Assembly (NCBI GenBank): GCA_965219415.1
Contig: CBDCNP010000002.1
Coordinates: 4,576,001 to 4,640,000 of the forward strand
DNA: 64,000 nucleotides
From: Candidatus Marinacidobacterales bacterium
GTDB taxonomy: Bacteria; Acidobacteriota; Vicinamibacteria; Marinacidobacterales; DATDRI01
Direction of reading: 5' to 3'
Positions 10,247 to 45,555 of this stretch are shown here, piece by piece. How positions within the stretch are numbered: the stretch's first letter is position 1; every line of letters starts with the position of its first letter. Under the pieces are notes generated by a model, which searched no databases, was not told the DNA's origin, and was given only the letters and a program-made list of their open reading frames with translations. Position numbers and translations under genes: made by a program.

Positions 10247-10417
10247 GATTTGTGGTCTATTTCAAAAGGGCCGAGTTTTGGCACAGGACGGGTTGCTACG
10301 TTTCTACCATCGGGAAGCCGCATGAGTATTTTGACCTCACGGGAAGCACCGGAAGTTCGCCAATCTCATACAGCTCGAGTTTATGGAAGGGACAGGTCCA
10401 GATACGCTGTTGGTTCG

Positions 10418-12703
10418 TCATCTCAACGTGAGCGTGTAGGCGGTGGGTCCTGGCAGAAGCGGCGTGGGTCGGCCCTCCTCCCAGTCTTCGTGGCCGGCGC
10501 CGTAGAACGGGGAGAGCGGGTGGCCGCTTTGGCCGCCGGGCATGTGGAACAGGCCCTCGTCTTCGCGGCCCGGTGACACCACGAATCGCTCCGAGGCGCC
10601 TTGGGTTCGGCTTTGGACGCGGGGCATGTGGCTGTCGCCTGGCAGTGGCCGGGACGGCATGTCGAGCCAGCGGGAGAGAAACGGGACGGCGCGGCTCAAC
10701 GGGTGGCGGATGTCAGACATTCTCGCGTCGCCCCAGGTTCGCGTTTCCAGGGGCTCGTCCCACTCGGCGACGGTTTGGTCGACGATGGCGTTAATCCATG
10801 TGTTCCAGCTGTCGTAGCTCGACGGCAGCAGGTGCGCGGGTTGTTCGGTCACGAGCTTCCACACTGGTCCCTCCCACTGGCGTTGTGCCCAAATGTCGAA
10901 GCGCAGGTCGGCGGCGCGTACGTTGCGAGTGATCGACGAGAGTACGGCTTCGTACACGGCGAGCCGCAGCTCGCGAACGATGCGGTATCCTGCTGAGTCC
11001 GTGGAAGCGCGCCCGGTCCACTCGTTCTTGATTACGCTTCGGATCGACTCGTCTTCGATGGTGTCGAGAAAGAAGTCGCGCCACGTTCCTATGAAAAGTG
11101 CGCGATCGTCGAGCTGGATAGCGAGCAGGTCTTGCTCGCTCGCCTTGTCGAGAGCAAACAAGTTGTCGCGGATTTGCCGGGCGCGTGCGCCGAGGTCATA
11201 GCCGCCGTCGCCGAGCTTGTCGAGTTTTTCGCCGCCGACCACGCGCGCGTTGGCGGTCCAGATGGCACCGCCTTCGGGATTGCGGATGACGGGATAGTCG
11301 GCGGGGTCGAGCCAGCCGTTCCAGCCGCGCGATCCGTCCGCCCACGACGACGGAAGTCTTCCATCGAAGCCGAATCGTCGCGGGATGCGCCCGGCGATCG
11401 TCCATGCGATCGTGCCCGAGGTGTCGACGCCGACGAAGTTTTGCGGAGGGATCCCGCTTCGTTGCGCGATGGCTAGCGCTTCTTCGAGCGTTTTCGCAGT
11501 TTCGAGCTTGCCAAATGTAACGTTGATGCCGCCAGGCTCATGGGCAATCCATCGTACCGCGCGCGGAGTGCCTTCGTGGTCTTCGTCGAGAACGGGTCCC
11601 CAGATCGTCTCTCGTACGATGAACTTCTCGGGCTCGGCGGCGGCGACGTAGATCGTCTCCTCGTGCACTTCGAAGCTCGTCCAGCCCTCAGCCGTTCGAT
11701 ACGTGTCTGCCTCGTCGGGGTGCATCTCGATCTCCACGAGATCGACCCAATCGCCGTTGGAGTTGGTGAAGGCCCAGGCGACTTTGGTGTTGCTGCCGGC
11801 GACGAGAAACGGAGTGCCTGGGAGGGTGACGCCGACGGCGGTGTTCAACACTGCGCGATACCAGATGTTGGGAACGGCGTGACCGAGATGCATGTCGCTC
11901 GCGAGCAGAGCGCCGCCGTGAGTCGTGCGCACACCGGCGACGGCCCAGTTGTTGCTGCCGAACGTGATCCTCTCACGACGCGATTCGCTGACCGAAACGG
12001 GCTCGGCGCGCAGTGCGGTCGCTGGGATCGGCGGCATCACGATGACGTTGCCTTCGACGGGCGCGTCCCAGTCGGTTCCGATCGGAGACAAAAATGCGGC
12101 GAGATCCGGTGGGAGTACGTCGTGGAGCAAGCCTAGAGTCGATTCGTAGTGGCCGTCGGCGTCGTTGAGCTCGAAATACATCGACGCGATCACGAGGACG
12201 CAGTCTTCGACGACCCACGGCCTTGGCTCTTGTCGCAGCAGCAGGTACTCGAACGGCGAGGCACCCAGTGTTGCGAGACCCGCGTTTACGCCGTCGGTGT
12301 ACGCGTCGAGAAGCGCTCGCTCGGTGTTGCTCGCGGCAGCGACGTTTCTCGCAGCTCGGGCGCGCATGCGGTGCACGCGGTGGGCTCGATCGACCGTGAG
12401 CGCCCCGGCGCCGATGAGTTCGGCGAGTTCGCCCGCGGCGCGCCGCCGCATGAGATCCATTTGAAAGAAACGCTCTTGGCCGTGCACGAACCCGAGCGCG
12501 CGGCTCAAATCGAGGCGACTCTCGGCAGTGATCGTCGGGACGCCGAGCACGTCCCGTTCGACCGTGACCGGTTCCGACAGTCCAGCAAGGGCTACTTCGC
12601 CATCGACATTAGGAAGACTTGCCTTCACCAAGTAAATCGTGAGAATCGCAGCGAGTGCAATTGCGAGTAGGAGGAAAAGCGCGAGTCTCTTCACCCATTT
12701 CAT
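10418..12703 (-). CDS. Penicillin acylase family (Ntn-hydrolase) protein
   Basis: 761 aa; N-terminal membrane anchor; ERFFQMDL; GSNNW autocleavage motif; DMHL; PGGQSG. Confidence 0.95.
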   Translation of the reverse strand: MKWVKRLALFLLLAIALAAILTIYLVKASLPNVDGEVALAGLSEPVTVERDVLGVPTITAESRLDLSRALGFVHGQERFFQMDLMRRRAAGELAELIGAGALTVDRAHRVHRMRARAARNVAAASNTERALLDAYTDGVNAGLATLGASPFEYLLLRQEPRPWVVEDCVLVIASMYFELNDADGHYESTLGLLHDVLPPDLAAFLSPIGTDWDAPVEGNVIVMPPIPATALRAEPVSVSESRRERITFGSNNWAVAGVRTTHGGALLASDMHLGHAVPNIWYRAVLNTAVGVTLPGTPFLVAGSNTKVAWAFTNSNGDWVDLVEIEMHPDEADTYRTAEGWTSFEVHEETIYVAAAEPEKFIVRETIWGPVLDEDHEGTPRAVRWIAHEPGGINVTFGKLETAKTLEEALAIAQRSGIPPQNFVGVDTSGTIAWTIAGRIPRRFGFDGRLPSSWADGSRGWNGWLDPADYPVIRNPEGGAIWTANARVVGGEKLDKLGDGGYDLGARARQIRDNLFALDKASEQDLLAIQLDDRALFIGTWRDFFLDTIEDESIRSVIKNEWTGRASTDSAGYRIVRELRLAVYEAVLSSITRNVRAADLRFDIWAQRQWEGPVWKLVTEQPAHLLPSSYDSWNTWINAIVDQTVAEWDEPLETRTWGDARMSDIRHPLSRAVPFLSRWLDMPSRPLPGDSHMPRVQSRTQGASERFVVSPGREDEGLFHMPGGQSGHPLSPFYGAGHEDWEEGRPTPLLPGPTAYTLTLR

Positions 12704-14079: not shown

Positions 14080-14315
14080 TTACTTCGGCCAGCGGCCGGA
14101 TACGATCCGGCGCTGTTTGATGCGGGTCGCCTCGACCGTGTAGACCCAGGCGAGTTCCCGGACTCCGTGGACCGTGACGGGCACCAGCACACGGCGGTAC
14201 AAGCTGGAACTGCCTGGACGGAAGCCCTCCAGGCGGTCGATGGCAGGCAGGCGGGATAGTGGGTCGTCGAAGGTGAGAAGCTCCCCGTACACGGCGCCCG
14301 AGGCGCCCACTGTGG
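14080..14315 (-). pseudogene. Gamma-glutamylcyclotransferase-like 3' fragment
   Basis: VYGELLTF...IDRLEGF...YRR...AWVY...SGRW. Confidence 0.75.
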
Positions 14316-15601
14316 TGTGCATCGTCAAAACTGCTCCGCCCACGAAATCAAGGACTTACGCTCCGCTTGAATTCCGGGCCGAAGACGGCGAAACTCCGCC
14401 GCTATGCTCAACGTTGTTGTCTTCCTCGTCTCACTTGGCGTCCGTGCCATTCGGGCGATGTGTCGGCGCCGCGCCGAGCTGGTGTTGGAGAACGTCGCTT
14501 TGCGGCAGCAAGTGACGGCGCTGAAGAAAGAGCGCCCACGCCCACCGCTCGACGACACGGAACGGGCTTTCTGGGTTGCCCTTCGAGGTTCGTGGCCCGT
14601 GTGGGCGAGCCGCCTGCTCATCGTCCACGCGGACACCGTAGCCCGTTGGCATCGCGACCGATTCCGACGGTACTGGGCAAATATCTCGCAGCGCCGCCAT
14701 CCCGGTCGGCCTCGGATTGATGCCGAGATTCGTCGCCTCGTCCGCACGATGGCGCAAGACGGCTGGGGGGCGCCACGCATCCATGCTGAGCTCACCAAGC
14801 TCGGTTTCATCATCTCCGAGAGCACGGTGTCGCGATACCTGCCGCGGCGTCCCGCGGAGCCCGACCAGCTGAAACGATGGATGGCTTTCTTGCGCAACCA
14901 TAAAGACGATATCGCCGCCATGGATCTGTTCACCGTGCCCACCGCGTCGCTCCGGCTGCTGTACGGCTTCTTCGTCATCGAGCACGGTCGCCGGCACATC
15001 GTTCACTTCAACGCCACGTTCCACCCGACGTCTGCTTGGGTTATTCAGCAACTACGCGAGGCGTTTCCCTACGACACCGCTCCGAGATATCTCATCTTCG
15101 ATCGCGACTTCATCTTTAACGCTGCGGTCATCGAGTTCATCAAAGCAACGGGCACAAAACCCGTTCGCACTTCGTTTCGCAGCCCATGGCAAAACGGAAC
15201 CGCGGAGCGGTGGGTCGGCAGCTGCCGTCGCGAGCTCCTTGAGCACGTCGTGGTTCTCGGCGCATGTCATCTCATCCGGTTCGTGCGAGCTTACATCAGC
15301 TACTATCATGAGGACCGTTGCCACTTGGGGCTGAACAAGGACACACCGAGCTTGAGAACGGTCACGCACCGACCGTCCTCCTACGGCGAAAGTAGTCGCA
15401 CTGCCGCGAGTCGGTGGACTGCACCATCGATACGAGTGGCGAGAGGCAGCCTGAGTCAGCTTGGTCGCTCGCGTTACTCGGCTGGTCGCCGAGAAGTTCG
15501 TCCTCAGCACCTTCCCTCGCGCGCTGACCACGCTCTCCAGCATGTGCTCGAGGGCAGTTCGGGCCTAGAGTCCAGTCCCGGACAAATAATGATGATGGAC
15601 A
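14316..15601 (+). mobile_element. IS481-like IS (integrase-core transposase), copy with 3' frameshift
   Basis: Ends TGTGCATCGTCA / TGATGATGGACA; DDE motifs DLFT, DRD, AER; extra C near 15378 relative to other copies; no TSD. Confidence 0.9.
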
Positions 15602-15841
15602 GGCGGCGCCGTTGCCTGGTGTTCCGTTCACCATGGCGGCCAGAGCGCGTCGGGTTGCGGCCGAATGCCCCCCATAGGTCCGGCACTGGCGTTCGTACGC
15701 GAGAACGCGGCACAGGAAAGCGCGTGAGAGCGAACTTGGCGGAGCAGCCTCGAAGGTCTGCTCCCAGACCCGCCGCAGGCTAGGAAGGTCCAAACCGTCC
15801 AGAACGATCCTCCGGCCAACTCTTGTATCCTGCGGCATCAC
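15602..15841 (-). pseudogene. DUF2924-like protein 5' fragment
   Basis: LDLPSLRRVW...PPSSLSRAFLCRVLAYERQ...GG; cut by the IS end. Confidence 0.7.
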
Positions 15842-16285: not shown

Positions 16286-16867
16286 TTATCTCTTGAATAC
16301 AAACGAAATTATGGGTGTGCTCTCGGGAAGATCGAACTCTCGGATCTCGTGAACTATCCCCCGCTTGCGAGCGAATTCAGCCGTCTTGGTCTGAGCCGCT
16401 ATGAAGAATTTCTCAACCTCTTTTTCGGAAATATCTGTTCGTTCAGTGATGATGCTGCCGATGCGCCGCTGATCAGCAGTAAGCCCGTCCAACATTTCCC
16501 TTAACGCTTTCTCTTCGTATCGACCAGCGGGTCGGTCAAATCCTACGCCATGAAACATGAACGTTGAGTTCGGACAGGCGTACCGAACATCTGCTGCTAG
16601 AAAAATGGCATTTCCTATTGAGTCGACATTACCAATGTTGTGAACGATGAGTTTGAACGGTACTCCTCTCAGAAAGTTGTAGAGTGAAATGCCTTGGGCA
16701 ACATTCCCACCTGGCGTCGAGAATGCAAGATAGACCTCCTTAACCCCTTGCTGGGCCAGGTTGGATAATGCTTGAATCATTACTTCTACGGTTTGGGGCA
16801 CGATCTCCGAAGTGAACATCGCGTAGACAAGTGGAGGAGGCGACGGTGTAGGTGTAGGGCCGTTCAT
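16286..16867 (-). CDS. ClpP-like protease
   Basis: STPGGNV...LYNFL...NVDSIG...FMFHG; standalone, lower GC. Confidence 0.85.
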   Translation of the reverse strand: MNGPTPTPSPPPLVYAMFTSEIVPQTVEVMIQALSNLAQQGVKEVYLAFSTPGGNVAQGISLYNFLRGVPFKLIVHNIGNVDSIGNAIFLAADVRYACPNSTFMFHGVGFDRPAGRYEEKALREMLDGLTADQRRIGSIITERTDISEKEVEKFFIAAQTKTAEFARKRGIVHEIREFDLPESTPIISFVFKR

Positions 16868-17604: not shown

Positions 17605-17812
17605 CGTGAGGTCAAAATACTCATGCGGCTTCCCGATCTTCGATAAGTGCTTCCGCAGTCAAGTGTTGGCGGCCGGCGCGTAACCTGTTCGCGTGCTAGA
17701 GTCTTAGCCTGATTTCGAGAGGCGCAGTTCTTTCGTCAATGCCGGCTGGGCCGAGTTTTGGCACAGGACGGGCTCAATTCCTTAGAAGTTTGACAAGAGC
17801 GGGAGGGAAAAA

Positions 17813-18130: not shown

Positions 18131-18356
18131 GCGTGGGCGCTCTTTCTTCAGCGCCGTCACTTGCTGCCGCAAAGCGACGTTCTCCAACACCAGGTCGGCG
18201 CGGCGCCGACACATCGCCCGAATGACACGGACGCCAAGTGAGACGAGGAATACAACAACGTCGAGCATAGCGGCAGAGTTTCGCCGTCTTCGGCCCGGAA
18301 TTCAAGCGGAGCGTAAGTCCTTGATTTCGTGGGCGGAGCAGTTTTGACGATGCACA
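18131..18356 (-). mobile_element. Left-end fragment of the 349-aa-transposase IS
   Basis: Inverted tgtgcatcgtcaaaac end and MLDVVVFLVSLG...; cut by a CGT terminus. Confidence 0.85.
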
Positions 18357-18569
18357 GGTGTTCGAAAGCTGCGTTTCGGGGCCTTGGGCCGTGGCAAGCA
18401 AGGCGGTGCGCGAGTGATCTACTTCTATGGTGGCGAAGACATGCCGGTCTATGCACTTCTCGCCTATGCAAAGTCGGCAAAGACAGACCTGAAACCGCAC
18501 GAGCGGCGAACGGTGTCCGCGCTTGTGGCGGCGATCAAGGCCGCCGGGAAGGAGAAGGAGAAGAAATGA
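18357..18569 (+). pseudogene. RelE/HigB-type toxin 3' fragment
   Basis: VRKLRF...GKQGGARVIYFY...LLAYAKSAKTDL. Confidence 0.8.
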
Positions 18570-18913
18570 GCACGTTCGGAGAGGACTTGATTCAATCGCT
18601 CGAAGAGGCTCTGGCCCATGCAAAGGGCGGAGGTCCCGCCATCGTTCATGCACCCGTAGTGCCACGCGAGGTTCGGAAGCAAGCGAAGCTTACGCAGGCA
18701 CAGATGGCGCTCCTGATGGGCATGAGCCTGTCCGGCTATCGGAAATGGGAGCAGGGCACACGCCGGGTCAGCGGCCCGGCGGCGACGCTCCTGTGCGTGA
18801 TCCAGAAGGAACCCGAGGCCGTCAGGCGCGCGTTGATGCACAGCAGGGGGACACGGACGAACTATACCCCCAAGATTGGAAAAGTCGTCGGGAAATCTCC
18901 AATCCCCAAGTAA
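18566..18913 (+). CDS. XRE-HTH antitoxin
   Basis: MSTFGEDLIQSLEEAL...LTQAQMA...WEQGTRRVSGPA; ATGA overlap with toxin. Confidence 0.85.
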   Translation: MSTFGEDLIQSLEEALAHAKGGGPAIVHAPVVPREVRKQAKLTQAQMALLMGMSLSGYRKWEQGTRRVSGPAATLLCVIQKEPEAVRRALMHSRGTRTNYTPKIGKVVGKSPIPK

Positions 18914-19257: not shown

Positions 19258-20657
19258 GGTGATGTCTTAAGATTCCTGTCAAAGAAAAACGATGTATGGT
19301 TCCCCAAGCTCAAACCCGTCCCCGTCATGGGGACAGAAAAGGAGAACCATACATCATGGGAAAGGTACTACCGAGTCAGCGATTGCTCAAGCAGTTCGAG
19401 GAACAACTGGTATTTGGGGAGATGAATCTCTCGGAGATCGTCCGGTCGGGAGCTCAGATGATGCTTCAATATGCGTTGGAGCGCGAGGTGACGGAGGCGT
19501 TGGGTCGAAACTACTATGAGAACGCTCCGGCAACGACGAAGGAGAAGGGACGACGCAACGGGTATGAGTCGCATCGGGTCCTCACGGGCGAGGGAGCGGT
19601 GACGGTGCAAGTGCCGCGGGTACGAGAAACAGAGAAGGTGTTTCAGTCAAAGATTCTCGACGCCTACGTGAGCCGGACCGAGAAACTCGATGAACTGATC
19701 GCGCGGATGTACGTCCACGGGATGTCGACGCGTGACATTGAGGCGACGTTCGCGGACGTGCTGAGCGGCACGGGTGTCTCGAAGTCGGTGGTGAGCCGGG
19801 TCACACGGTGTCTGTCGGAGGATTTCGAGGCGTTTCGAAAACGGGATCTCTCGAACGAGAAGCTGTTGTATCTCGAGCTCGACGGCACGTACCTGCGCTA
19901 CCACCAAGGAGCGGAGAGGAAAGAGCCCATCCTCGTTGCGACCGGCTATCGCGCTGATGGGACGCGAGTTCTTCTTCATATCGGTGTCGGCAACCGAGAA
20001 TCCTACGAGAACTGGAAGGGGTTCTTGCAGGAGATAGTGGCCCGAGGAATGAGGGAGCCGTTGCTCATCGTGACGGACGGGAATCCTGGAGTGCTCAAAG
20101 CGATCGCAGAGGTCTTCCCTCGAAGCCTCAAGCAACGTTGCCAGAAGCACCGCCTCGAGAACATCCTGGGCAAGGCTCCGAAGGAAGTGCGCGACGAACT
20201 CAAGGCGGCCATCCTTGAGTCGTTCCATGCGAACAGCTACGAGCAAGGGCTGAAGAAGGGTCGGGAGGTGATCGCTCGGTACCGTCAACGATTCCCGAGC
20301 GCGATGAAGTGCATGGAAGAGACCCTCGAAGCATGTCTTCAGGCGCTACGCCTTCCTGCGGCGCATCACAAAAGGCTTCGCACGTCGAATCTACTTGAGC
20401 GCACGTTCGGAGAGCACAAACGTCGCACAAAGGTCATTCCTCACTTCTTCACCGAGGAGGCCGCGATGAAACTCTCGTTCGCTGTGCTCTTGGCCGCCGC
20501 AAACAAATGGCGCGGCGTGAGGATGGATGTCTTCGCCGCTAGGAAAGTCGAGGAGCTTCGCAACGAGCTTCTCCCGCAAGGCACGTCGGAGGAATCAGCA
20601 GCTTAACCGAGCGCGGGGAACCGTACGGAGATTTGACAGGAAAATTAAGACTTGACC
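19258..20657 (+). mobile_element. Complete IS256-family element
   Basis: Transposase ~19356-20606 (LDGTY, TDGNPG, QRCQKH, RTSNLLER); IRs ggtgatgtcttaagattcctgtcaaa / ggtcaagtcttaattttcctgtcaaa; 8-bp TSD GTTTGACC. Confidence 0.95.
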
Positions 20658-22319: not shown

Positions 22320-22324
22320 GGAAA

Positions 22325-26923: not shown

Positions 26924-26937
26924 GCTCGTGAAGGCAT

Positions 26938-27961: not shown

Positions 27962-27981
27962 GGTGCTTCCGCCATCAAGTG

Positions 27982-31302: not shown

Positions 31303-31454
31303 ATCAACTCATGAGCGAAGACGCTGTTATCGTCGATGTCGGAGGCATCGATCTAAATGACGGGAACGTAAAAACCGCGTACGTTCGGATCCGGCTCCGA
31401 ATCATAGGAAATTTACCGTGGCCGCGTGAGCAAAAAACACTGAGTTTATGTTCG

Positions 31455-31659: not shown

Positions 31660-31675
31660 CAGGGCCGCGAGTCGG

Positions 31676-34405: not shown

Positions 34406-35605
34406 GGTGCTTCCGCCATCAAGTGTTGCTACGCGGCTGCGGGCAGTGGTACAGGTGCGGAAGAGACCGGGTTGCGCGCCCTACTGAGCACGAAAACCTC
34501 GATCCGCGACCACAAAGGAATCGTCGTCGCCAAGAAGATGTCTCGAAAGGTGAGCCGTCGCGTGGTCAGACCAGCCTGCATAGCCGGAGTTCGGATCTCA
34601 CGTCCGAACTTCAGAGCTCCGTGCGGTCGGACGAAGTTGTAATAGCAACGGAGCAACTCCAGGTGCTCATCGAGCCTCTCCGTCGAGCGAGCGTGGGAAA
34701 GCGTTCGTCTCGAAAGGTATGCCGAGCTTTGCCGGATGGTCAGATTTAACCGCTCGATGAACGACGTGTTCAGTGTCGAGGAGTCCTCGGAGTTATTGAG
34801 CGCGTCTTCGAATCGCCACGCGGCTCCGTGCAGCGCTCTGCGTTCGACCTTGATGATACGATCGTTCCTGCGCGTCTTTAGGACCTGGCCGTAGAGACAC
34901 GCTGGCCCGAAGAAGCGACGGATGACCTTCTGGTAGAATTCGAATCCATCCGTGACGATCAAGGGAAGACGCTCGAAATTCATCCGTCTCGAAAGGTCGC
35001 GAAACAGAGCGTGAGTGTTCCGGTAGCTTCGCCTTCCCGTCACCGTCGATGGCCAGAGCCGAGACCAGACTTCGATTGTAACGAAGACCCAACTCGGTGT
35101 CTTCTTGTTGCCCGCGAACGTGCGAATCTCGTCGGCTTGAAGCTCTTCGGCAGCGAAGCCCGCGATCCTTCTGTGATTGAATCGACGACACACTTGGGCT
35201 GCCTTCTCGAGCCAGCGGGCGACGGTGTTCCAGGCAATCCCTTTGATCCGGGAAATCGCGGAAATGCTGACACCCTCGACTCTGAGAGCGATGACCCCAT
35301 CGAAAGTAGCTCTTCGATGTTGGAGACGGTAGTAGGGCGTGCCTTTCGTCGAGGAGAACGTCTTTCCGCACTCGCCGCACCGGTATCGACGGCGTTTCCC
35401 GGACCTCGTTCTGTAGAATCCGTGGCGAACGATGTTTCCGGAACTGACTTTGCCCCGCAACGGACATGCGAGATTGAGACATCTGCGATTCTTCACTTTG
35501 GCTCGGCCCTGACGATGAGAGAACTGTGTCTTCGGAATTCTGGTTCAAACTCTAGCACGCAGACCGGTTAGAGGCTGGCCGCCAACACTTAATTGCGGAA
35601 GCACC
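34406..35605 (-). mobile_element. IS1-family element, intact copy 2 (transposase 34429-35496)
   Basis: 355 aa, near-identical to copy 1; GGTGCTTCCGC IRs; no TSD. Confidence 0.9.
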
Positions 35606-35806
35606 ACTCCGACGATACAGGAACTCGCTGCGGCGTAGTTGGCCTAGCGCGTTCTACTTCAGGTGCGGCCCGGGCCTACTTGATGTTCTTTACTTGTCTC
35701 AGATTTGGGGTTGTGATTCGCAAGAAAGAAGATCGCGTAGCGCTGGATCGGCTTTTTGCAAAGCACAGGTACTGAATTTATACTTCGGCACTGGAGAGTG
35801 CACCGG

Positions 35807-36571
35807 ATGTTCAAGTCATGGCGCGCCTATTTGAATTTCGAACGGGGCATCATGTTCGATCGTCGATATGTTCGCTCCGCCGATAACGAGGAGTTTTTGG
35901 ATGCTGTACTCGCTACGGCTTCAGCGCGCAAAGTAAGTTTGAAGAAAGGCTCGATATACTGGCGGGCGCAGCTCGGTCATGATTTGCGCGAAGAAGGTGA
36001 AGGTAATGACGCGTTTGAGGTAAAGCGTGCCCTTCGGTCATCTCGAATGAAACCCCGTCAAGACCGTGCGTCCGAGGGTCGAGCCAATCCGAAGGGCATT
36101 CCTTACTTATACTTGGCAAATACTATAGAAACTGCAGTGGCAGAAGTGCGTCCCTGGATTGGATCGGATGTGTCGTTGGGTCAGTTTGAAGCCATTCGCC
36201 AGCTGCAGATCATTAACTGCTCTCACAATCACAGCGATCAATCCTACTTCTTCTCCTTCGGTCACGAACCGCAATTGTCACAGGAAGAAATTGAAAAGGC
36301 CGTGTGGTCCAATATCGACAAGGCGTTTGCTGCGCCTATCGTTCGTGACGACGATATCGCTGCATACGCGGCAACGCAGACCATCGCAGAGTTGTTCAAG
36401 AGCCACGACTATGACGGCTTGGCATATCGAAGTAATTTCGGAGAAAAGGGATACAACATTGCTCTCTTCGATATCAACGCGGCACGTTTACTCAATTGTG
36501 AACTGCACCGAGTCGATTCCATCGCGATAACGTCTTCCGTGCAAGACAACGCATACTTCGTAAAAAACTAA
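35807..36571 (+). CDS. RES-domain protein (putative NAD+ phosphorylase)
   Basis: YWRAQ...EGRANPKGIPYLYLA...AVAEVRP...DGLAYRS...NIALF. Confidence 0.88.
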   Translation: MFKSWRAYLNFERGIMFDRRYVRSADNEEFLDAVLATASARKVSLKKGSIYWRAQLGHDLREEGEGNDAFEVKRALRSSRMKPRQDRASEGRANPKGIPYLYLANTIETAVAEVRPWIGSDVSLGQFEAIRQLQIINCSHNHSDQSYFFSFGHEPQLSQEEIEKAVWSNIDKAFAAPIVRDDDIAAYAATQTIAELFKSHDYDGLAYRSNFGEKGYNIALFDINAARLLNCELHRVDSIAITSSVQDNAYFVKN

Positions 36572-37010: not shown

Positions 37011-37200
37011 GGGTGAGCTCGCGTGGGACGACGTCTCGGAGCTCGGTCAGCTGGCGTGTGGGAAAGCGTCGGGTCGCCGGACGGAGGAAGACATTACGCT
37101 TTTCGAATCGCAAGGAATCGCGATCGAGGACGTCGCGGTCGCTCGCCGGGTTCTTGAGTTAGGACGCGAGCGTGGACTAGGCCAAGCACTACCCTTTTGA
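37011..37200 (+). pseudogene. Ornithine cyclodeaminase/mu-crystallin 3' fragment
   Basis: Own translation ELGQLACGKASGRRTEEDITLFESQGIAIEDVAVA...RGLG. Confidence 0.8.
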
Positions 37201-37653
37201 CTTGGGAGTTTCTTCCAGCAAGGTGCGCGTGATTTGCTGCCCATGCTCGAGCACTTCCTCCAGACGACTTTGAAAGTGGATGCGGTTGGCCAGCTCCGCT
37301 AGCGGCCCGAGCGGGAGCTCATACTCGATGATGTCGGTCATGCGCGTTCCGGGCCCTTCGGGGGCGAACACGTGAGTGTGGCGGTAGCTCTGAAAAGGCC
37401 CGGCTGCCTGAACGTCCACGAACTGTGAAGGGGCTGCGTACTCGACGATCTCACCGGTCCAGTCGAACCGTAAGGGACCGACGTACATCGCGTACTTCAA
37501 GACGGACCCTCGCTTCAGGCTCTTGGGCACCTCGACGATGTCGATTCGAAGATAAGCAGGAAGGATCTTTAGGAGGTTACGTGGATCGTCGTGGAATTGA
37601 AAGACCAGCTCTGTCCGGCTATCGATTAGGGTAGTTCGCTCGACTCGACTCAT
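37189..37653 (-). CDS. SRPBCC-family protein
   Basis: VFQFHDDPRNL...FVDVQAAGPFQSYRHTHVF...MTDIIEY. Confidence 0.85.
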   Translation of the reverse strand: MSRVERTTLIDSRTELVFQFHDDPRNLLKILPAYLRIDIVEVPKSLKRGSVLKYAMYVGPLRFDWTGEIVEYAAPSQFVDVQAAGPFQSYRHTHVFAPEGPGTRMTDIIEYELPLGPLAELANRIHFQSRLEEVLEHGQQITRTLLEETPKSKG

Positions 37654-38129
37654 GACTGGTCGGTCTTCCCTCGTTCCAGTGCTACCCTCACGTTTTCCAG
37701 TCCGGTGCTGACTAGCTCTTCAAGTTTCTCTCGTACATAGAGTTTGTGGGCGAGCGAACTGAGAAGTCCATGAGGCATCTGATACTTCAACAGCTCGCGG
37801 ACCCACGTCGACGTCCCTTCCGGCTTGAAATGATGCTCATGGCTCCATTGTGTGAATCGACCACGGCGCTGAACGTTGACGAAGCGCGCGGGTGGTTGGT
37901 ATTCCGACACCAGTGCTTCCCAGCGGAACTCCAGTGGTCAACCGCGAAGACGGTATCCGAAGATTGCCCCGGGTCGAAGATCTTTCGGGAGCCGTTCCAG
38001 CTCGACGCCCGATGTGCTGGAGGTGATGAGCCGAAGGTTTTCCGGAGTGTCGTAGAACGCGAAGACCTCGCCGATTGGCCGTGCGATCTTGGTGCTGCGC
38101 TCGATGTGGAAGCTCCTTTCATTCCCCAT
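37650..38129 (-). pseudogene. SRPBCC-family paralog, frameshifted
   Basis: VFAFYDTPENL (37938-38129) and FVNVQRRGRFTQWSHEHHF (37650-37910) in different frames. Confidence 0.8.
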
Positions 38130-38141
38130 GGGGGCCCTATC

Positions 38142-38540
38142 CTATGTCTGGGGGCTGTCGGAATTCAACGAGGTACTTAACAGTGGTAGGAGTCGGGCCG
38201 TAGCCTGTTCGACTTGCTCGATGGCCTTTTGGCGAGGTTTGTCAGTCAGCGCTTCGGCGAGCACGATCGTCAGCAGCGCCCGCGAGCTTACCCGGTGCAC
38301 CAACACGGTCGGGTAGGGGTCTTCTTTTCCCTCACCAACGAGTGCCCCCAGTAGCGGCGTTAGAGACGAAAGGAGATGCGGGAGCGGAAAGTCAACGTTC
38401 CCGAAAGCGCCGAAGGGAGTGCCCGCCTCGTCTACTAGGAAGGCCGAGCGTGCACCGAGCTGCGACACCAGGTCGGCGAGCAGATCGCGAATCGGTGCGA
38501 TGGCTCCAGGGCGCGCAAGAATCTCGTCCGACAGAGACAC
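38142..38540 (-). CDS. Hypothetical protein (possible roadblock/profilin-like fold)
   Basis: 132 aa, co-directional with the SRPBCC genes; LADLVSQLGARSAFLVDEAG. Confidence 0.55.
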   Translation of the reverse strand: MSLSDEILARPGAIAPIRDLLADLVSQLGARSAFLVDEAGTPFGAFGNVDFPLPHLLSSLTPLLGALVGEGKEDPYPTVLVHRVSSRALLTIVLAEALTDKPRQKAIEQVEQATARLLPLLSTSLNSDSPQT

Positions 38541-38898
38541 TGTTTCACTCCAGTTGATATGTTATGGAGGATGTGTCCCGAGGTCCGTGGAAAAAGAACG
38601 GCGCCCTCCACTCCGTCATCGGAGTATCATACCAGGCGGTGACCTCCGCGTGTTCGAGAACCTCGCTCAGACGTTGGTAGCCGTCGATGCGTCGTAGTTG
38701 AATCTGGCCAGAGGCGATAAGCCCAAACAGCAAAGCGACCGCAGACTCCTCGTCCTGTGCCAAAACTCGGCCCTTTTGAAATAGACCACAAATCAGCAGC
38801 TTAGACGCCCTTGGAATCCGCGCAGAATCCAGGGTATTTCGCGCCGTAGGGCTGACTTCCGACCCATGGGGCTGGCGGATGAATAAATAGAAGGCACA

Positions 38899-39646: not shown

Positions 39647-40036
39647 GGGTCGGCAGCTGCCGTCGCGAGCTCCTTGAGCACGTGGTGGTTCTCGGCGCAT
39701 GTCATCTCATCCGGCTCGTGCGAGCTTACATCAGCTACTATCATGAGGACCGTTGCCACTTGGGGCTGAACAAGGACACACTGAGCTTGAGAGTGGTCAC
39801 GTACCGACCGTCTCCTACGGCGAAAGTAGTCGCACTGCCGCGAGTCGGTGGACTGCACCATCGATACGAGTGGCGAGAGGCAGCCTGAGTCAGCTTGGTC
39901 GCTCGCGTTACTCGGCTGGTCGCCGAGAAGTTCGTCCTCAGCACCTTCCCTCGCGCGCTGACCACGCTCTCAAGCAGTGGGCTCCAGGGCGGTCCGGGCC
40001 TAGATCCAGTCCCGGACTAATAATGATGATGGACAC
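39647..40036 (+). mobile_element. 3' fragment and right end of the 349-aa-transposase IS
   Basis: GSCRRELLEH...WREAA; gatgatggaca. Confidence 0.85.
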
Positions 40037-40260
40037 CCATCTGAAGTCCTCGGTCGTCCTCGAGGTAGAGCGTCGGAGCGACTTGAACCAGCACCGCCCG
40101 TGGATAGCCACGGCACATGCCGGGTTTGACACGCACCCGGGAATAGTCCAGTATGGCGCGGTCGGCTATCCGATGGCTCTTCGTAGTTTTTTTTGCTGGT
40201 GACTTCCACCACACCTCCGTCAGCCCTCGCTTAGGCCCTTTCCGTTCAGGAGTTCATTTC

Positions 40261-40554
40261 ATGGGTAAGATTTATGTAGGCAATTGTTCCTTCGACGTCA
40301 CCGAGCAACAGCTCAGAGACGTCTTCGGGACTTACGGCGAGGTGAGTAGCGTCAACGTGATCACCGATCGCGACACCGGTCGCGCGCGTGGTTTCGCTTT
40401 CGTTGAGATGTCGGACAGCTCGGCCGCGCAAGCGGCCATCCGTGGCGTCAATGGAACTGATCTCGGTGGTCGTACATTGAACGTCAACGAAGCCAGACCC
40501 CGGACCGAAGGTGGCGGTCGCGGTGGCGGTGGTGGTGGCGGGCGGCGCTGGTAA
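40261..40554 (+). CDS. RRM RNA-binding protein with Gly-rich tail
   Basis: KIYVGN (RNP2), RGFAFVEM (RNP1), LNVNEARPR, GGGRGGG. Confidence 0.95.
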   Translation: MGKIYVGNCSFDVTEQQLRDVFGTYGEVSSVNVITDRDTGRARGFAFVEMSDSSAAQAAIRGVNGTDLGGRTLNVNEARPRTEGGGRGGGGGGGRRW

Positions 40555-40864
40555 GCCCCACTCCTCGACTCGGACCAAATTTTTCCTTGCGACGAGCCCG
40601 AGACCTACGAAAGGTCTCGGGCTCTTTCCAATCGCGCTTCTCTTCCATGGAATCTGGTGCTTCCGCCATGAACTGTTGGCAGCCAGGCCTTAACCCGTGT
40701 GCGTGGTAGAGTTTGAGCTTGATTTCGAGAGACGTAGTTTCTCTCATAGACAAGGGGCCTGTGCTCCGCAACAAGTCTATCCCAGTGTTGATTGCGCGAT
40801 TTATGGCTGCCATGCTTGGCGACCAGTTACCTCAGTCCGAGCGCAAGGTGCGCTCCCGTGAACG

Positions 40865-40949
40865 CGTGAGGTCAAAATACTCATGCGGCTTCCCGTTGGA
40901 AAGGTGCAAACTGCTGACCCGATGGGCGTTCGAATATTTTGACCAGACG
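40865..40949. mobile_element. 85-bp mini-element with CGT termini (62-bp relative at 18069-18130)
   Basis: cgtgaggtcaaaatactc...gaatattttgaccagacg inverted ends. Confidence 0.8.
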
Positions 40950-40957
40950 ACCAAGAG

Positions 40958-41437
40958 ATGATGTACCCAAGCCCGAGCATGCTATCCGAACAAGTACGCC
41001 GCCGTGTCATCGAGAGCCTGAACGCACGGCTCGCGGACGGACTCGATCTGCACAGCCACATCAAAGTCGCGTACTGGAACATCCGGGGACCTCAGTTCCC
41101 GTCGCTCCATCCCCTGTTCGAGACGTTCGCGGTCAGCCTCGCCAACCACAACGATGCCGTTGCCGAGCGCGCGGTCACTCTCGGCGGCCAAGCGTACGGA
41201 ACCGCCCGGCACGTCGCCGGAGCGTCGGCACTGACCGAATACCCTCGAGACACGACCCGCGATATGGAGCACGTGAAGTTGCTGGCGGATCGGATCGAAG
41301 CCTACTTGATCGGTCTACGCGAATCGCGCGAAATCGCCAACGACACAGGCGATACCGATACCGCCGATTTGTTGACCGCCATCATCACCGAGTTCGAGAA
41401 GCACGACTGGTTCTTGCGGGCCTCGTTGGACGGCTAG
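40958..41437 (+). CDS. dps: Dps-family ferritin-like DNA protection protein
   Basis: LNARLAD...KVAYWNIRGPQFPSLHPLFE...DAVAER...GDTDTADL...EKHDWFL. Confidence 0.9.
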   Translation: MMYPSPSMLSEQVRRRVIESLNARLADGLDLHSHIKVAYWNIRGPQFPSLHPLFETFAVSLANHNDAVAERAVTLGGQAYGTARHVAGASALTEYPRDTTRDMEHVKLLADRIEAYLIGLRESREIANDTGDTDTADLLTAIITEFEKHDWFLRASLDG

Positions 41438-41449
41438 CTAGATCGTCCC

Positions 41450-41885
41450 CGTCCTGTGCCAAAACTCGGCCCTCTTGAAATAGCTGATAAATCAGCAGCT
41501 TAGCGTCTGTGTTTTGCGACCGACAGAACGAAACCACCAAGGTCTCGGCAACGAGCTCATCACCCCTCTGCCGGCAAGCGCGAAGGACGCTGGTCTCATC
41601 GTATCGCGAGAGCGACTTTGGGGCATTCTCAAGTACTACTACCGTGCCGCGTCGATTGTCGCCGACGATGGTAGCCCCTCGGTGGACTCGACCGGCGTAG
41701 CGTGGAAACACAACTTCAGGAACACGCTTGGATATTCGCTCTCGATTAGGTGGTCATCTGCATGGTGATGACCCGCCCGCCCAAGACGATTGTAGAGCCT
41801 ACAGCCCTTGGCCCAGTCGCAAACACAGACGCTAAGCTGCTGATTTATCAGCTATTTCAAGAGGGCCGAGTTTTGGCACAGGGCG
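41450..41885. mobile_element. ~435-bp MITE with ~65-bp terminal inverted repeats (CGT-type)
   Basis: cgtcctgtgccaaaactcggccctcttgaaatagctgataaatcagcagcttagcgtctgtgttt and its reverse complement flank a transposase 3' remnant. Confidence 0.88.
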
Positions 41886-41987
41886 ACCACGTTGTATCTC
41901 AGTCATTCGGTGCTGACAAGGGCTGATACCACACGGGGTTGCTACGTTTCTACCATCGGGAAGCCGCATGAATATTTTGACCTCACG

Positions 41988-42237
41988 GGATGCGGCTGTC
42001 ATCATCCACGCGTTGTCGACGACGGAGCGCGGCTAGGGAGTGAAGAGCGGGACCTTCCATCTGGTTGGCGAGTGCTGTCTCATCAGCTTCCTCGTAGTAG
42101 CCCGACTTCTGAGCCACTAGCTTGATCGGAAGGGACTTTGATGTCTTTGCGATCTTGTCGTATGTCCAAATCATTCCAGGCTGATCTGAAACCTCGAAAC
42201 CGCGTAGGTAGTGTTGAGGCACGTAGTGTTGACCCAT
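41988..42237 (-). pseudogene. DUF4238-like protein 5' fragment
   Basis: QHYVPQHYLRGF...IWTYDK; cut by a CGT terminus. Confidence 0.7.
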
Positions 42238-43321
42238 GGCTTACGAAGATGTCCTTCGGATCATCGTGGCTCCCGTGGTCGATAGGCTGCCGAAATAATA
42301 TCCCCAACCATTAATATGCAACGGTTTAGTATGTGCTACCTGCTTACTTTCTCGTTCGGTACGCCTCAATATGAACCGGCCTCGACTGAACCAAGAGCCG
42401 CCTGTGGACGAATCTAGAGCGGAATTCGGTTCGCGACGGTCGGCTCCTTGGCCGAGTAGTCTCGGCACCGGTGACGTTGGGTCGAACCAGTCTGGACCGA
42501 TGATGGCTGGCTGTCGATGGTGAATGTCGGCAAGCCCTGGAGAGGCCGTCGTCGGGTGCTGTCAAGTTTTCCACGGCCTGACGGCCACCCCGAATGAATG
42601 AAACGCGGTAGTCTCTGGAGGTGGCACCGGCTCAACACGACGCCTGAGGGAGCTCGGTTTTGACGTCACTGCCCCAAAACGCTACACCCTGAGTTTCTTA
42701 TTAGTTGAGATTTTGAGCTCGGAGCGGCCCGCTCAGAGTTCGAGACCTCAACTTGACAGTATCCTCCAAGCGCAAGGTGCGCTCCCGTCAACGGCTTGGC
42801 GGGTTGCTCCGTTTCTACGATCGGGAAACCGCATGAGTATTTTGACCTCACGGGGTTATCGACATGCGGCGAGGACCGCCCGACAAGTCCGGAGGGGCCA
42901 ACCTCTGTTCAGACTCCAGCGCCCGGAACGTGGCGAGGGCTAACGGTCGCTTCCGAGAACCACTGCTCTCCGTACAACCTTGACGACTACGCCTACCCGC
43001 AGTCCGTCAAAGATGACATCGTGCACGAGCCGGGTGGCATCTACAGCCCCTACACCTGTGAGGCGTTGACTCGACCCGCGACACAGACATCAAGCACATC
43101 GCGGCACGCTCAGAGGCACACGACGCCGGGCTGTGTGCGGCGGATGCCGACACGAATTGGTACAACACGCAACGACTCTCGGAGCCGATCGGAAATGTCT
43201 CCTCGGTCGAGTACGAAATGAACTATTATCGGTCGCAGGAAGGCTCGCTATAGATGGCGAGACTCAACTAAAACGGTCTCTGGAAAGCCCGGGGCGGTTC
43301 AATTCTCATGGCGGTCACAAT

Positions 43322-44674
43322 ATGAGACTTAGACGCATCACTATTCGTAAATTGTTCGGAATGTTCGATCATGACATCCAGCTCAACCAACGCGAGCGAA
43401 TCACCATAATTCATGGCCCGAACGGAGTCGGGAAAACCACAGTACTTAGGCTAATCGCGGACCTATTTTCACGGCGATACTTGTCGCTTCAAAGGGTGCC
43501 GTTTTCCTCCATGAGGGCCGAGCTTCGCAACGGAAGCGGGCGAGCGACTCTGACGGTTCGCCGTACCGTCACCAAAAAGAAGGATAAGCCGATCGAACTA
43601 AAGTTCCGATTGGAAGACGGTTCCGAGAGGGCCGAGGGCGCGGTGCCAAAGGAGCACGTCATCAGATGGTCCTCGCGTCAACATCGCCCGCCACCCGGTC
43701 TTCGGTTGGTCGAAGAGTACGTCCCCTTCCTTGAACGAATCGGGCCGCAGCGATGGCTAGACCGGCGGTTTGATGAGTCCTTAACTCTTGAGGAGGTCTT
43801 TCAACGATTCGGCGAAATGTTACCTCCGGAAGCTGGCCCAGCTGTGGACGCGGTGCCTGATTGGCTAGAAAACGCCCTCAAGTCTGTTCAGACTCACTTC
43901 ATTCAAACTCAGCGCCTCCTCGTCTCTCCTCGTCGGCGGAGACGGGCGCCCGATCCTGACACCCGGACGACCAGCACAGTTGAGCAGTACGCGGAGGACA
44001 TGGCTACCCTCATCCAAGAGAGGCTTCGGCAGTCCGGCACCCTTGCTGCCTCGCTCGATAGTACGTTCCCTCGACGTCTCATTGAGGGATCGCTGCCTGT
44101 TGCGATTGACGAGATTCAGATCCGGGATGAGTACAAGCGACAATCAGAGTTTCGAGAGCGGCTTATGGCCGCCGGCCTTATTGATCCCGGCGCACAGGTG
44201 CCATTACCCGCAGGCGAACTGGGGCTGAACGAAAGGAAGGTTCTCTGGTACTACCTGGAGGATGTGAGCAAGAAGTTTAAGGTCTTCGAGAACCTGCTGG
44301 ACCGAGTCGAACTGTTGCAGGATATCATCAATAGCCGATTTCTGTACAAGACAATGACCGTCGACAAAACGCACGGCTTTCTCTTTGAGACAGACACCAC
44401 GAAACAGAGGATTCCCCTGGCGTCGTTATCATCGGGCGAGCAGCATGAACTCGTGCTAGCGTTTGAGCTCCTCTTTAGGGTTACGGAACAGCCTTTGATT
44501 CTCATCGACGAGCCAGAGCTTTCGCTTCACGTCACTTGGCAGCACAAGTTCTTGGACGACATCGAACGGATTTCGGCGCTGGCCAATCTGGATTTTCTGG
44601 TCGCTACTCACTCGCCGTCCATAATCCACAATCGCCAGGACCTTATGGTTGAGCTAGCCGAGAATACTCGGTGA
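43322..44674 (+). CDS. ABC/AAA ATPase, PARIS AriA-like
   Basis: IHGPNGVGKTT Walker A; LSSGEQ signature; LIDEPELSLH; VATHSP. Confidence 0.85.
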   Translation: MRLRRITIRKLFGMFDHDIQLNQRERITIIHGPNGVGKTTVLRLIADLFSRRYLSLQRVPFSSMRAELRNGSGRATLTVRRTVTKKKDKPIELKFRLEDGSERAEGAVPKEHVIRWSSRQHRPPPGLRLVEEYVPFLERIGPQRWLDRRFDESLTLEEVFQRFGEMLPPEAGPAVDAVPDWLENALKSVQTHFIQTQRLLVSPRRRRRAPDPDTRTTSTVEQYAEDMATLIQERLRQSGTLAASLDSTFPRRLIEGSLPVAIDEIQIRDEYKRQSEFRERLMAAGLIDPGAQVPLPAGELGLNERKVLWYYLEDVSKKFKVFENLLDRVELLQDIINSRFLYKTMTVDKTHGFLFETDTTKQRIPLASLSSGEQHELVLAFELLFRVTEQPLILIDEPELSLHVTWQHKFLDDIERISALANLDFLVATHSPSIIHNRQDLMVELAENTR

Positions 44675-45555
44675 TTCAGTACATCACTGGCGCCGATGTA
44701 GCTGCCGAAGTCAGACTCGTGCGGGCAGCCTTTCGAGGCACGATCGCGATTGTCGAAGGCTCGACTGACTACAAGCTGTTCCAAAGATTTACTGACGAGC
44801 GACTCTGCCGATTGCTGCCGAGTCATAGTAAGGAAAACGCCCTTGAGGCTGTTCGACTGCTAGAGGAGACTGGATCAGAGGGCGTTCTATGCATCGTTGA
44901 TGCCGATTACTGGCACCTGGACGGTGGCGCACCCACTTCTGGAAACGTGATTCCTACCGATCGGCACGACATCGAAGTCGACATCATTTGCAGTAGAGCA
45001 CTTGATCGTTTCTTGCGCGAGTATGGATCGAAAACGAAGACCCAAAGCTTTGTCTCCGCAGAAGAAAACAAACCACTTTCAGAGATACTCCTCACTCGAC
45101 TTCTACCGCTCGGACACCTACGCCGACTTTCGCTCCTGAACAATTTTTCGCTTCGTTTCGAGGGCCTGAAATTTCGTCGCTTCGTCGATCCGGCGGCATT
45201 GCTGGTCGACATAGACGCTCTCGTCTCCCAGGTCCTTAACCTCACTCGCGACTCGTCGATCGACGAAGGAAGCTTGCTTAGCAAGCTAGCTGAGGCGGTA
45301 GAAGACGCTATCGACGCGGAGCAATGTTGCTGCGGACACGACGTAGTCGAGCTCCTCTCGCTCGGGCTCCGTCGCGCTCTCGGTAGCCAGAGAGCCGCTG
45401 TTTCATCAGTAGAGAACCTGGCGAGAGCGTTACGGCTCGCTTTTGACTGGCTGGACCTGTCGTCCATGCGCATGTTTCGCCTAGTCACTGCATGGGAAGA
45501 AGCCAATCCACCGTACGTCGTTTTCTCTCCCTCCCCGTCCTGTGCCAAAATTTGA
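44671..45555 (+). CDS. DUF4435/TOPRIM protein, PARIS AriB-like
   Basis: IVEGSTD, IVDADY, HDIE, CGHD motifs; GTGA overlap with the ATPase. Confidence 0.8.
   Translation: MIQYITGADVAAEVRLVRAAFRGTIAIVEGSTDYKLFQRFTDERLCRLLPSHSKENALEAVRLLEETGSEGVLCIVDADYWHLDGGAPTSGNVIPTDRHDIEVDIICSRALDRFLREYGSKTKTQSFVSAEENKPLSEILLTRLLPLGHLRRLSLLNNFSLRFEGLKFRRFVDPAALLVDIDALVSQVLNLTRDSSIDEGSLLSKLAEAVEDAIDAEQCCCGHDVVELLSLGLRRALGSQRAAVSSVENLARALRLAFDWLDLSSMRMFRLVTAWEEANPPYVVFSPSPSCAKI

Follow-up and report, generated by a model that had tools for sequence, protein, structure and literature searches.

Why should unrelated genes lie singly between the ends of insertion sequences (ISs), some of them trimmed almost to the open reading frame (ORF)? 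The question is raised by positions 10343-45555 of a 64,000-nucleotide window (C3:4576001-4640000; the stretch itself is C3:4586343-4621555) from the genome of a Candidatus Marinacidobacterales bacterium, here called G000, of 8.05 Mb in three contigs (C1-C3) with 59% G+C. A prediction made from the letters of the window had described the stretch as gene-sized pieces concentrated by one-ended transposition or a similar capture, functionally like an integron, and had offered as a neutral alternative an IS graveyard left behind by serial deletions, in which selection preserved some ORFs intact. We found the neutral alternative to fit best. The stretch is an ordinary though very dense part of a transposon-saturated accessory region and not a local device, and it was probably shaped by serial insertion, deletion and gene import in a plastic region saturated with ISs and miniature inverted-repeat transposable elements (MITEs), with no dedicated capture machinery.

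A dense view of a repeat-rich compartment

We aligned the window on the whole genome and defined element tips by the sharp pile-ups of alignment ends. As described in the original prediction, lone genes lie flush between IS ends: we identified eleven gene-bearing segments delimited by the ends of at least nine IS/MITE families. The two flanks come from different IS families in every one of the eleven (0/11 with matching flanks), and the cargo lies on both strands. The non-IS gene content is mostly defence, toxin-antitoxin and imported accessory genes, and 6-7 of the approximately 20 genes are fragments.

Repeated DNA, counted as 20-mers in at least three copies, makes up 43.3% of the stretch. 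Since 12.8% of the 35-kb windows in the surrounding zone of C3 reach the same level (zone median 33.7%), what had been called a scrapbook is one view of a compartment of approximately 1.6 Mb. The compartment covers C3 4.1-5.7 Mb, where mostly 20-49% of each 50-kb bin is repeated, and is preceded by a few islands. Over whole contigs, 20-mers present at least three times account for 7% of C1, 20% of C2 and 16% of C3. The 56-nt terminal repeat of the family T1, the "CGT" terminus (CCCGTCCTGTGCC...), has 512 matches in the genome, distributed as 475 on C3, nearly all of them past 1.8 Mb, 36 on C2, with 34 in its first 100 kb, and one on C1 (2.07 Mb).

The region forms an island of defence and accessory genes. 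Using PADLOC and Pfam, we assigned defence-type genes to AriA/AriB, type IIG restriction-modification, Cas1/2/4 with an array, HKD+Snf2, AbiU2, Doc/Fic and RES, so that several unrelated defence systems stand side by side, as in defence islands. As in regions of plasticity, content is missing from close relatives: the amidase, Fic, the htpG piece and window 1-4600 and 50650-54000 have no full-length match in either of the two same-genus genomes, G001 and G002 (0/2).

Closeness of element ends to gene ends across the genome

The distances between termini and ORFs, which the original prediction had proposed to test against random, are shorter than chance against random positions, though not against the other IS junctions of the genome: the closeness is real but genome-wide, not specific to the stretch. 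We studied 372 junctions at which a tip of T1, T5, T6, T2 or IS-A (families described below) abuts 400 nt or more of unique DNA, and considered frames of at least 100 codons. The junction fell inside a coding-like frame in 148 cases (40%), compared with 255-270 (69-73%) at positions shifted 150-300 nt outward. A frame ended within 25 nt before the junction in 38 cases and within 100 nt in 107, against 6-13 and 30-43, respectively, in the shifted controls. Within the window, the 3' ends of the amidase, GGACT, HU, htpG, RES and dps genes lie 6-21 nt from a repeat edge, and the intact amidase, ClpP-like, Fic, RRM and lipoprotein genes keep 51-122 nt upstream, which is what selection for a promoter together with the ORF would leave.

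The ORF-end bias is a published pattern for most IS families. A survey of 30,499 genomes reports that 29 of 30 IS families favour intergenic DNA and that 28 of 30 are found in excess 1-3 bp from the ends of coding sequences (CDSs). It also describes sequences resembling terminators alongside ISs, a concentration of ISs in plastic regions, and genes of defence and the mobilome as their neighbours (Gaudilliere-Jami et al. 2026, PMC13548323). An earlier study places ISs in excess between convergent genes (Plague 2010, PMC2942039). A targeting of hairpins or terminators by the families studied here was considered and rejected: for 254 T1, 105 T5, 82 IS-A, 79 T6 and 54 T2 tips, the 40-nt outer flanks folded no better than sequence 60 nt further out or random windows, and the T1 flanks reaching -12 kcal/mol made up 20%, in comparison with 17% further out and 20% in random windows.

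Independent insertions beside dps

The dps gene (a Ferritin-domain ORF, 40958-41437, plus strand; segment 40950-41447) is bounded tightly by two termini, much as had been noted: a T3 tip ends at 40949, 8 nt before the ATG, and a T1 MITE (41448-41885) begins 10 nt past the stop. This copy lacks a promoter and a Shine-Dalgarno sequence and is the only dps locus cut so close on the 5' side. A second copy in G000 (C3:1838529-1839047) is 98.8% identical, and the 497-bp segment recurs at 99-100% identity in three of 20 relatives searched, one of another genus and two of another family; neither same-genus genome contains it. Close loci in the public genome collection belong to metagenome-assembled genomes of Candidatus Marinacidobacterales, Acidobacteriota. 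The loci in other genomes and the second G000 locus retain a LysR-type gene and the dps promoter upstream, and the start of the homology varies among loci (positions 342, 475, 535 and 1032 of locus L005).

On the 3' side, five of six dps loci have an IS end 4-11 nt past the stop: two T1 ends, one T4 end at the same nucleotide, and two ends of other types after CTAG. One locus in the genome G003 is an uninterrupted site with a terminator hairpin. The tight 3' boundary thus results from insertions that took place several times, independently, in a very short spacer, and not from a cassette end. The dps|T1 junction itself is identical in the window and in the genome G014 over 567 bp.

Copied pieces and a shared gene pool

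Intact second copies of the cargo, the sign of capture that had been proposed as a check, were found for a part of it. Near-identical copies elsewhere in G000 exist for dps, the OCD3'-SRPBCC piece, the helix-turn-helix (HTH) segment (99.4%), part of a NucS-like segment (99.7%) and HU, and the MmeI-like gene has further copies at 96% and 87%. No second copy in G000 was found for the amidase, ClpP-like, Fic, lipoprotein, RES, RRM or AriA/B genes or for the htpG stub.

The OCD3'-SRPBCC piece (37011-38568) is directly bounded by a T6 tip on one side and by the tip of a 52-copy repeat on the other. It consists of the 3' end of an OCD gene (Pfam 265-308 of 314), an SRPBCC gene recognized by Pfam (37189-37653, minus strand) with a 35%-identical neighbour, and one more ORF, and is 99.4% identical to C1:866045-867606 and 99.1% identical to C3:3549612-3550856. 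The C1 locus continues on both sides into native-looking sequence and has an orthologue in G001 at 84%; it has no IS within 5 kb, and a composite-transposon origin of the copy was rejected on that ground. The two C3 copies are cut at four different IS tips, each extending further on one side, and five of the 15 variable sites unite them against C1. This pattern is consistent with a single export from C1, one further duplication and trimming of each copy on its own. We conclude that pieces such as OCD3'-SRPBCC from C1 and dps have indeed been copied into the compartment.

Much of the remaining content has little counterpart within the genus. The amidase was not found in G001, G002 or G003, and Fic gave only two matches of 29-31 nt, both in G003, among five relatives searched. 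In G001 and G002, the amidase, the htpG piece and window 1-4600 have at most stray matches of 32-89 nt, and window 50650-54000 has no full-length match, with three pieces of 76-366 nt in G002. Two segments do have counterparts there, that of the esterase at 92% and the OCD-SRPBCC piece at 84-86%, the latter range being the vertical DNA identity within the genus. Some other cargo recurs in G003, G014 or G018 at 88-98% with other truncation points, and some is common to genomes of other genera or families at 97-100% identity. None of 54 other genomes of the order contained the lipoprotein unit or the RES unit when each was searched together with its two flanking tips; the search scored only 8-10 candidates per genome, out of as many as several hundred at first look, and could miss weak relatives.

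The eight G000 copies of the IS256-family element are 99.9-100% identical to each other, and dozens of copies at 99-100% exist in G001, G002, G003 and G018, which represent the same genus, another genus and another family; set against the 84-86% of vertical descent, this points to very recent spread between lineages. A plasmid collection held no match for the IS256-like element or for window 40000-42000. With 99-100% identity across genera and families of the order and only approximately 85% in vertical descent within the genus, the LysR-dps module and the ISs show that a mobile gene pool is being shared now.

Target-site duplications in young and old families

Young and old families differ in the traces their insertions have left. 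Target-site duplications (TSDs) of 8-9 bp flank all eight IS256-like copies, and TSDs of 3-5 bp flank 27 of 36 IS3-like copies by our own count from the flanks. The uninterrupted target was found elsewhere in the genome for 6 of 6 IS256-like and 17 of 22 IS3-like testable copies (together 23/28). The abundant older families have no TSDs at all: 0 of 25 intact T1 elements, 0 of 149 T5 MITEs, 0 of 31 IS1-like copies and 0 of 48 IS-A copies, in total 0 of 253 copies in four families. The earlier observation that full-length IS481-like and IS1 copies in the window lack TSDs therefore extends to the whole genome. In the IS481 family, TSDs are 4-15 bp long, and in the IS1 family, 8-9 bp. For T1, we searched lengths of 2-40 and tip shifts of -6 to +6, and the only signal was a trivial CG inside the repeat.

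Neither empty sites nor contiguous flanks were found for the abundant families (0/82, 0/13 for IS1-like and 0/27 for IS-A; in total 0 of 122 testable), and these old families always lie at breakpoints. In other genomes, TSDs were likewise not seen in seven full IS-A copies, one possible 3-nt match aside, or in 14 T5 MITEs. The missing half of a duplication could be carried by another copy, and such partners were found for 8 of 208 T5 tips at k=8 plus four at k=7, and for 2 of 157 IS-A tips; the T5 pairs listed fall on a single 8-nt site within the T1 repeat. An 8-nt overlap is confined to T5 tips located inside the T1 repeat, and its two halves are then at separate loci. A peak of T1 partners at k=7 (339 tips) is, in our reading, an artefact, as a single pair of back-to-back tips spaced by 7 nt would pair with every tip.

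Weighing the explanations

We consider serial insertion, deletion and gene import the probable origin of the stretch. Foreign and duplicated DNA would accumulate in the compartment, and at least nine IS/MITE families would have inserted there repeatedly, often into each other's ends. IS-associated deletions and rearrangements would then have removed one flank of nearly every older element and trimmed genes to stubs. Selection would act as a filter on the outcome: endpoints in intergenic DNA, above all just past stops, would survive, and broken genes would shrink away. We infer that deletion and selection, rather than insertion preference, cause the junction bias, and the order of events is reconstructed in the same way. 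The case cautions against reading design into dense IS mosaics, as ORF-tight ends and isolated genes are products of insertion, deletion and selection.

Several observations weigh against this account. With decay scaled on the IS3-like copies, approximately three of 27 empty sites would be expected for IS-A and 2.5 of 13 for the IS1-like element, and none was seen (P(0) of 0.035 and 0.06, respectively); for the 8%-diverged MITE, the same scaling predicts that no empty site is kept. Age and a high rate of IS-associated deletion are thus a possible but borderline cause of the absence of TSDs, and as TSDs are absent in other genomes too, it is conceivable that these families move or join in a non-canonical manner intrinsic to them. 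The T1 and T4 ends at the same nucleotide past dps in two loci need chance or a weak site preference. In the window, six of approximately 30 3' junctions counted by hand lie within approximately 21 nt of a stop, about twice the genome-wide proportion of 38/372 (P ~0.07 by our binomial estimate, the definitions not being identical).

An intrinsic behaviour of this kind would make the TSD-less families (T1, T5/IS1-like and IS-A) joining modules, the mosaic being assembled segment by segment and not carved, either through IS26-type cointegrate and targeted-conservative reactions or through homologous exchange on IS/MITE copies common to several genomes. We regard this explanation, by either route, as rather improbable. 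The lack of TSDs and contiguous flanks in families that can be set beside 23 of 28 controls, and the same lack in other genomes, speak for it, as do the presence of the families in five other genomes at up to 99% identity, the dps|T1 junction shared with G014, and the recurrence of T5 and IS-A tips at fixed points of the T1 repeat with halves at different loci. It is opposed by the absence of same-family flanks in all eleven segments, the lack of an IS6-family transposase among those scanned, the near absence of TSD partners, the many fragments without a partner half, and the failure of the lipoprotein and RES units to recur with both junctions in the order. That the four TSD-less families depart from ordinary cut-and-paste or copy-and-paste transposition, their ends being portable joints that fuse or exchange unrelated DNA, is, by itself, unlikely in our view. 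Were it true, the compartment would be a community-wide gene-shuffling platform with the single-gene segments as exchange units; if the missing duplications reflect the mode of movement, these families would bear on how accessory regions are assembled.

The idea of an integron-like or one-ended capture that concentrates gene-sized pieces as functional cassettes draws on the several ORFs bounded within 6-21 nt at the 3' side and on the second copies of dps, OCD-SRPBCC, HTH and HU, but we find it very improbable. A tyrosine recombinase (Phage_integrase-type Pfam) was found neither among 102 ORFs of at least 100 aa (8936-48776) nor among 18 further ORFs of the window and of IS copies, and the cargo boundaries are inverted-repeat tips of at least nine families with no attC-like site, in agreement with the stated absence of intI and attC. 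Rfam at gathering score and a tRNA scan returned nothing in the window, the presence of an attC model in Rfam not having been checked. The lack of same-family flanks argues against composite transposons and IS26-type units, and the true IS tips of different families on both cargo sides argue against one-ended capture with a surrogate end. Moreover, cargo lies on both strands, approximately one-third of the genes are fragments, dps has no promoter or ribosome-binding site, and boundaries differ between copies. Together with the genome-wide distances and the units' absence from the 54 genomes, these results speak against the integron-like capture originally proposed. An assembly artefact, with chimeric joins made through the repeats of several metagenome organisms, seems highly improbable. 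The genome scores 8.45% contamination, the ISs are 99-100% identical across genomes, and contigs, not long reads, were compared. However, ISs of 1.26-1.4 kb have perfect TSDs and empty sites, and the 166-bp elements are far shorter than any long read. As the young ISs have clean TSDs there and empty sites elsewhere, the joins across these 1.26-1.4-kb repeats are right. Contigs assembled at k=31 from runs X9 and X10, which may be the source sample, extend approximately 30 nt across eight cargo/repeat junctions, which belong to the htpG, esterase, lipoprotein and RES segments, at a depth of 9-16 and with no differences; they are short and uninformative on long-range order, and uncovered parts carry no evidence either way. 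Several public runs labelled as sponge metagenomes gave small shares (0.11-0.15), from which no habitat is concluded. The left dps junction (40949/40950) is not bridged in the listed contigs, and the dps contigs of runs X1 and X13 run upstream off the window. The local assembly is sound.

Gene segments of the stretch and its surroundings

The left end of the stretch is a nest of repeat ends (10081-10396) made up of a 166-bp T5 MITE (10081-10246), a piece of T1 terminus (10247-10292, tip at 10292), a T2 terminus with its tip at 10343 and the 46-nt end of a 26-copy repeat (10351-10396). It is followed by an intact, single-copy penicillin amidase gene (10418-12703, minus strand; Pfam 1-667 of 675), with its stop 21 nt from the repeat edge at 10396 and its start 122 nt from a T6 tip at 12826. 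A distant amidase paralogue (33-42% identity) at C1:856223-859214 is split by a 1.46-kb, 31-copy element. The 3' fragment of a GGACT (gamma-glutamyl cyclotransferase-like) gene (14083-14355, minus strand; Pfam 50-119 of 120) is cut by the left tip of an IS-A copy (14316-15602) at 14316. The ClpP-like gene (16286-16867, minus strand) lies between a T1 tip at 16111 and a T6 tip at 16968. It scores best with models of ClpP-related phage head-maturation proteases, under their cut-offs, and could be what remains of a prophage instead of a protease with a housekeeping role; a relative in G003 (88-90%) is split by approximately 1.4 kb that the match skips.

An HTH gene (18329-18913) and a Fic/Doc-family gene (20985-22319, plus strand) follow, the latter 59 nt from a T1 tip at 20925 and with a repeat edge 42 nt past its stop. 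The HU gene (25067-25384, plus strand) lies in segment 24647-25400 with a T4 terminus upstream; it belongs to a multi-copy unit, with 12 places in the genome by tblastn including that of the window, and is cut here 16 nt past the stop. The amidase, ClpP-like, HU and RRM genes had each been said to sit alone, and each, like the Fic/Doc gene, is indeed the only recognizable gene of its unique segment, except that HU is part of the multi-copy unit. The 3' fragment of htpG (26102-26923, plus strand; Pfam HSP90 223-492 of 518) is cut on its 5' side by a piece of IS-A at 26108 and has a repeat edge 6 nt past its stop. No other HSP90 was found in G000, and neither same-genus genome has DNA closely matching the fragment (E <= 0.001). 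The htpG, OCD, MFS and GGACT genes are present in pieces, as their partial Pfam coverage confirms, although "housekeeping", the term first used for them, is doubtful for htpG with no other HSP90 in the genome. A DUF2924 piece with partial Pfam coverage is also among the fragments.

The 5' stub of an MFS gene (31405-31689; Pfam 1-57 of 347) and an alpha/beta-hydrolase esterase gene (31676-32938), both on the minus strand, are approximately 92% identical to G001 and G002. In G001, the stretch past the esterase aligns with the stub partly and with gaps and contains only a 71-codon ORF without a Pfam match, and the stub is probably an old fragment. The lipoprotein gene (33001-33474, minus strand) lies, as described, between two ends, a T5 MITE (32790-32956, 166 bp) and a T2 tip at 33526; its true start is placed at approximately 33474 within the ORF 33001-33546, because the lipobox FVAGC comes after an internal Met. 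The RES-domain gene (35756-36571, plus strand) stops 12 nt before a T4-type terminus from 36584, in keeping with the original reading. The RRM-domain gene (40153-40554, plus strand) lies between an IS-A fragment ending at approximately 40035 and a T5 tip at 40656, and the 5' fragment of a DUF4238 gene (41986-42240, minus strand; Pfam 2-62 of 281) is cut at a T2 tip at 41989. The stretch ends with a PARIS-like pair on the plus strand, AriA from approximately 43301 and AriB at 44671-45555; a 34-copy repeat (43156-43301) abuts the start of AriA, and a T1-like motif (45532-45566) overlaps the stop of AriB.

Outside the stretch, the window holds an HKD+Snf2 gene (620-3769), AbiU2 (5863-6660) and an MmeI-like type IIG enzyme (45762-48776; 1125 bits). 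The PLD/HKD+Snf2 gene, a candidate defence gene, has three copies in G003 with different cut points (92-98%) and is absent from both same-genus genomes. A CRISPR array (55314-56986) of 23 repeats of approximately 37 nt, one repeat-spacer pair of which is duplicated (56435-56730), adjoins cas2, cas1 and cas4 (57165-59178; best models Cas1c and Cas4c). The array and the cas genes are flanked by inverted IS-A copies (54012-55270 and 59718-60976; 97%), and effector cas genes were not found within the window.

Element families

T1 occurs as 11 full elements of approximately 1431 bp and 14 MITEs of approximately 320 bp. The remaining approximately 450 tips sit in nests, and copies of the IS body number only 35-50. 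Solo T1 termini were rejected as a discrete short repeat, as only 58 of 449 tips have unique DNA within 80 nt, and a sequence-specific T1 target was rejected as well, with only a weak CGAC-like preference at -4 to -1 among 504 tips. The T1 transposase reaches 97 bits with the NCBIfam model for IS481 (NF033577; cut-off 224) and 79-84 bits with IS3 (cut-off 160), and is a distant rve_3 relative only; taken together, the T1 and IS-A transposases are no more than distantly related to IS481 and IS3 and stay below the family cut-offs (97 and 79-85 bits against 224 and 160). T2, T3 and T4 are termini related to the "CGT" ends of T1. T5 (GGTGCTTCCGC...) comprises a 1.2-kb IS1-like element, the transposase of which reaches 85 bits with the IS1 model NF033558 (cut-off 100), and a 166-bp MITE with 149 near-full copies. 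T6 (TGTGCCTTCTA...) has 160 tips, and IS-A, 1285 bp long, has 48-50 full copies. Further elements are of the IS3 family (36 copies), the IS256 family (eight copies) and the IS110 family. Among the seven transposases scanned with NCBIfam, none was of the IS6 family; the only such signal was a 27-bit side match of the IS256-family protein.

In the stretch, the IS256-family element (19258-20657, plus strand; NCBIfam IS256, 295 bits) is a simple insertion that has the 8-bp TSD GTTTGACC, and the IS3-family element (23369-24626, minus strand) lies within an inverted repeat of T1 and is flanked by the 4-bp TSD GGGC. A stack of ISs (27962-31302) is formed by an IS110-family element (27962-29404), an IS1-like copy without its first 18 nt (29405-30586) and the 3' part of an IS-A copy (30587-31302). 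A full-length IS1-like element with T5 ends (34406-35605, minus strand) has no TSD.

The T1 repeat has fixed points at which other elements lie: seven to eight T5 tips at TCCTGTGC, IS-A tips after ...AAAACTCGGC (two copies in G000 and one in G002), and IS3-like elements, with TSDs, at GGGC and TAG. At the T2 end (10323-10343, 33526-33546, 41969-41989 and 50365-50385), the transposase stop overlaps an outward ATG (ATGA) approximately 18 nt from the tip, and an open frame therefore runs from the element into the adjoining DNA. The ORF 33001-33546 on the minus strand begins at such an ATG, ahead of the true lipoprotein start. A repeat of approximately 129 nt (17647-17775 and 62923-63053) is bounded by a T5 tip and, at the opposite end, by a T1 tip, and resembles a miniature element that is a hybrid of the two families.

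Comparison with known systems

The stretch adds one more case to a known class: it is a region of genome plasticity saturated with ISs, and a defence island as well. It resembles integron cassette arrays in its row of short, mostly single-gene units of unrelated function and differs from them in the lack of IntI and of attC-like sites at the boundaries, in the use of both strands, in the variable boundaries and in the many fragments. The arrays, pseudo-compound transposons and translocatable units of IS26 (Harmer, Moran, Hall 2014, PMC4196232) likewise have unrelated segments among IS copies and copies without TSDs. In those arrays, however, one IS family stands in direct orientation on both sides, in contrast to 0 of 11 segments and no IS6-family transposase found here.

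Closer likeness is offered by the IS clusters of plastic regions, which form interdependent pile-ups in variable regions, intergenic, a few bp from CDS ends, beside terminator-like sequences and with defence and mobilome neighbours (Gaudilliere-Jami et al. 2026, PMC13548323; Plague 2010, PMC2942039). The region differs from those published clusters in its greater density and extent, with 30-49% repeats over approximately 1.6 Mb, in its at least nine families nested in each other's ends, and in the lack of TSDs in the older families. Like defence islands, it holds a PARIS-like pair, a type IIG enzyme, a CRISPR adaptation module with its array, HKD+Snf2, AbiU2, Doc and RES beside mobile elements; unlike them, it also holds the amidase, dps, RRM, HU, the esterase and the htpG stub. 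Expansions to hundreds of IS copies, with pseudogenes and deletions between copies, characterize host-restricted Shigella and Bordetella pertussis. The load here differs in being compartmentalized, with T1 counted once on C1 and 475 times on C3, and in being shared across genera at 99-100% identity, and a noteworthy feature is a chromosome with a sharply bounded, megabase-sized, repeat-rich compartment.

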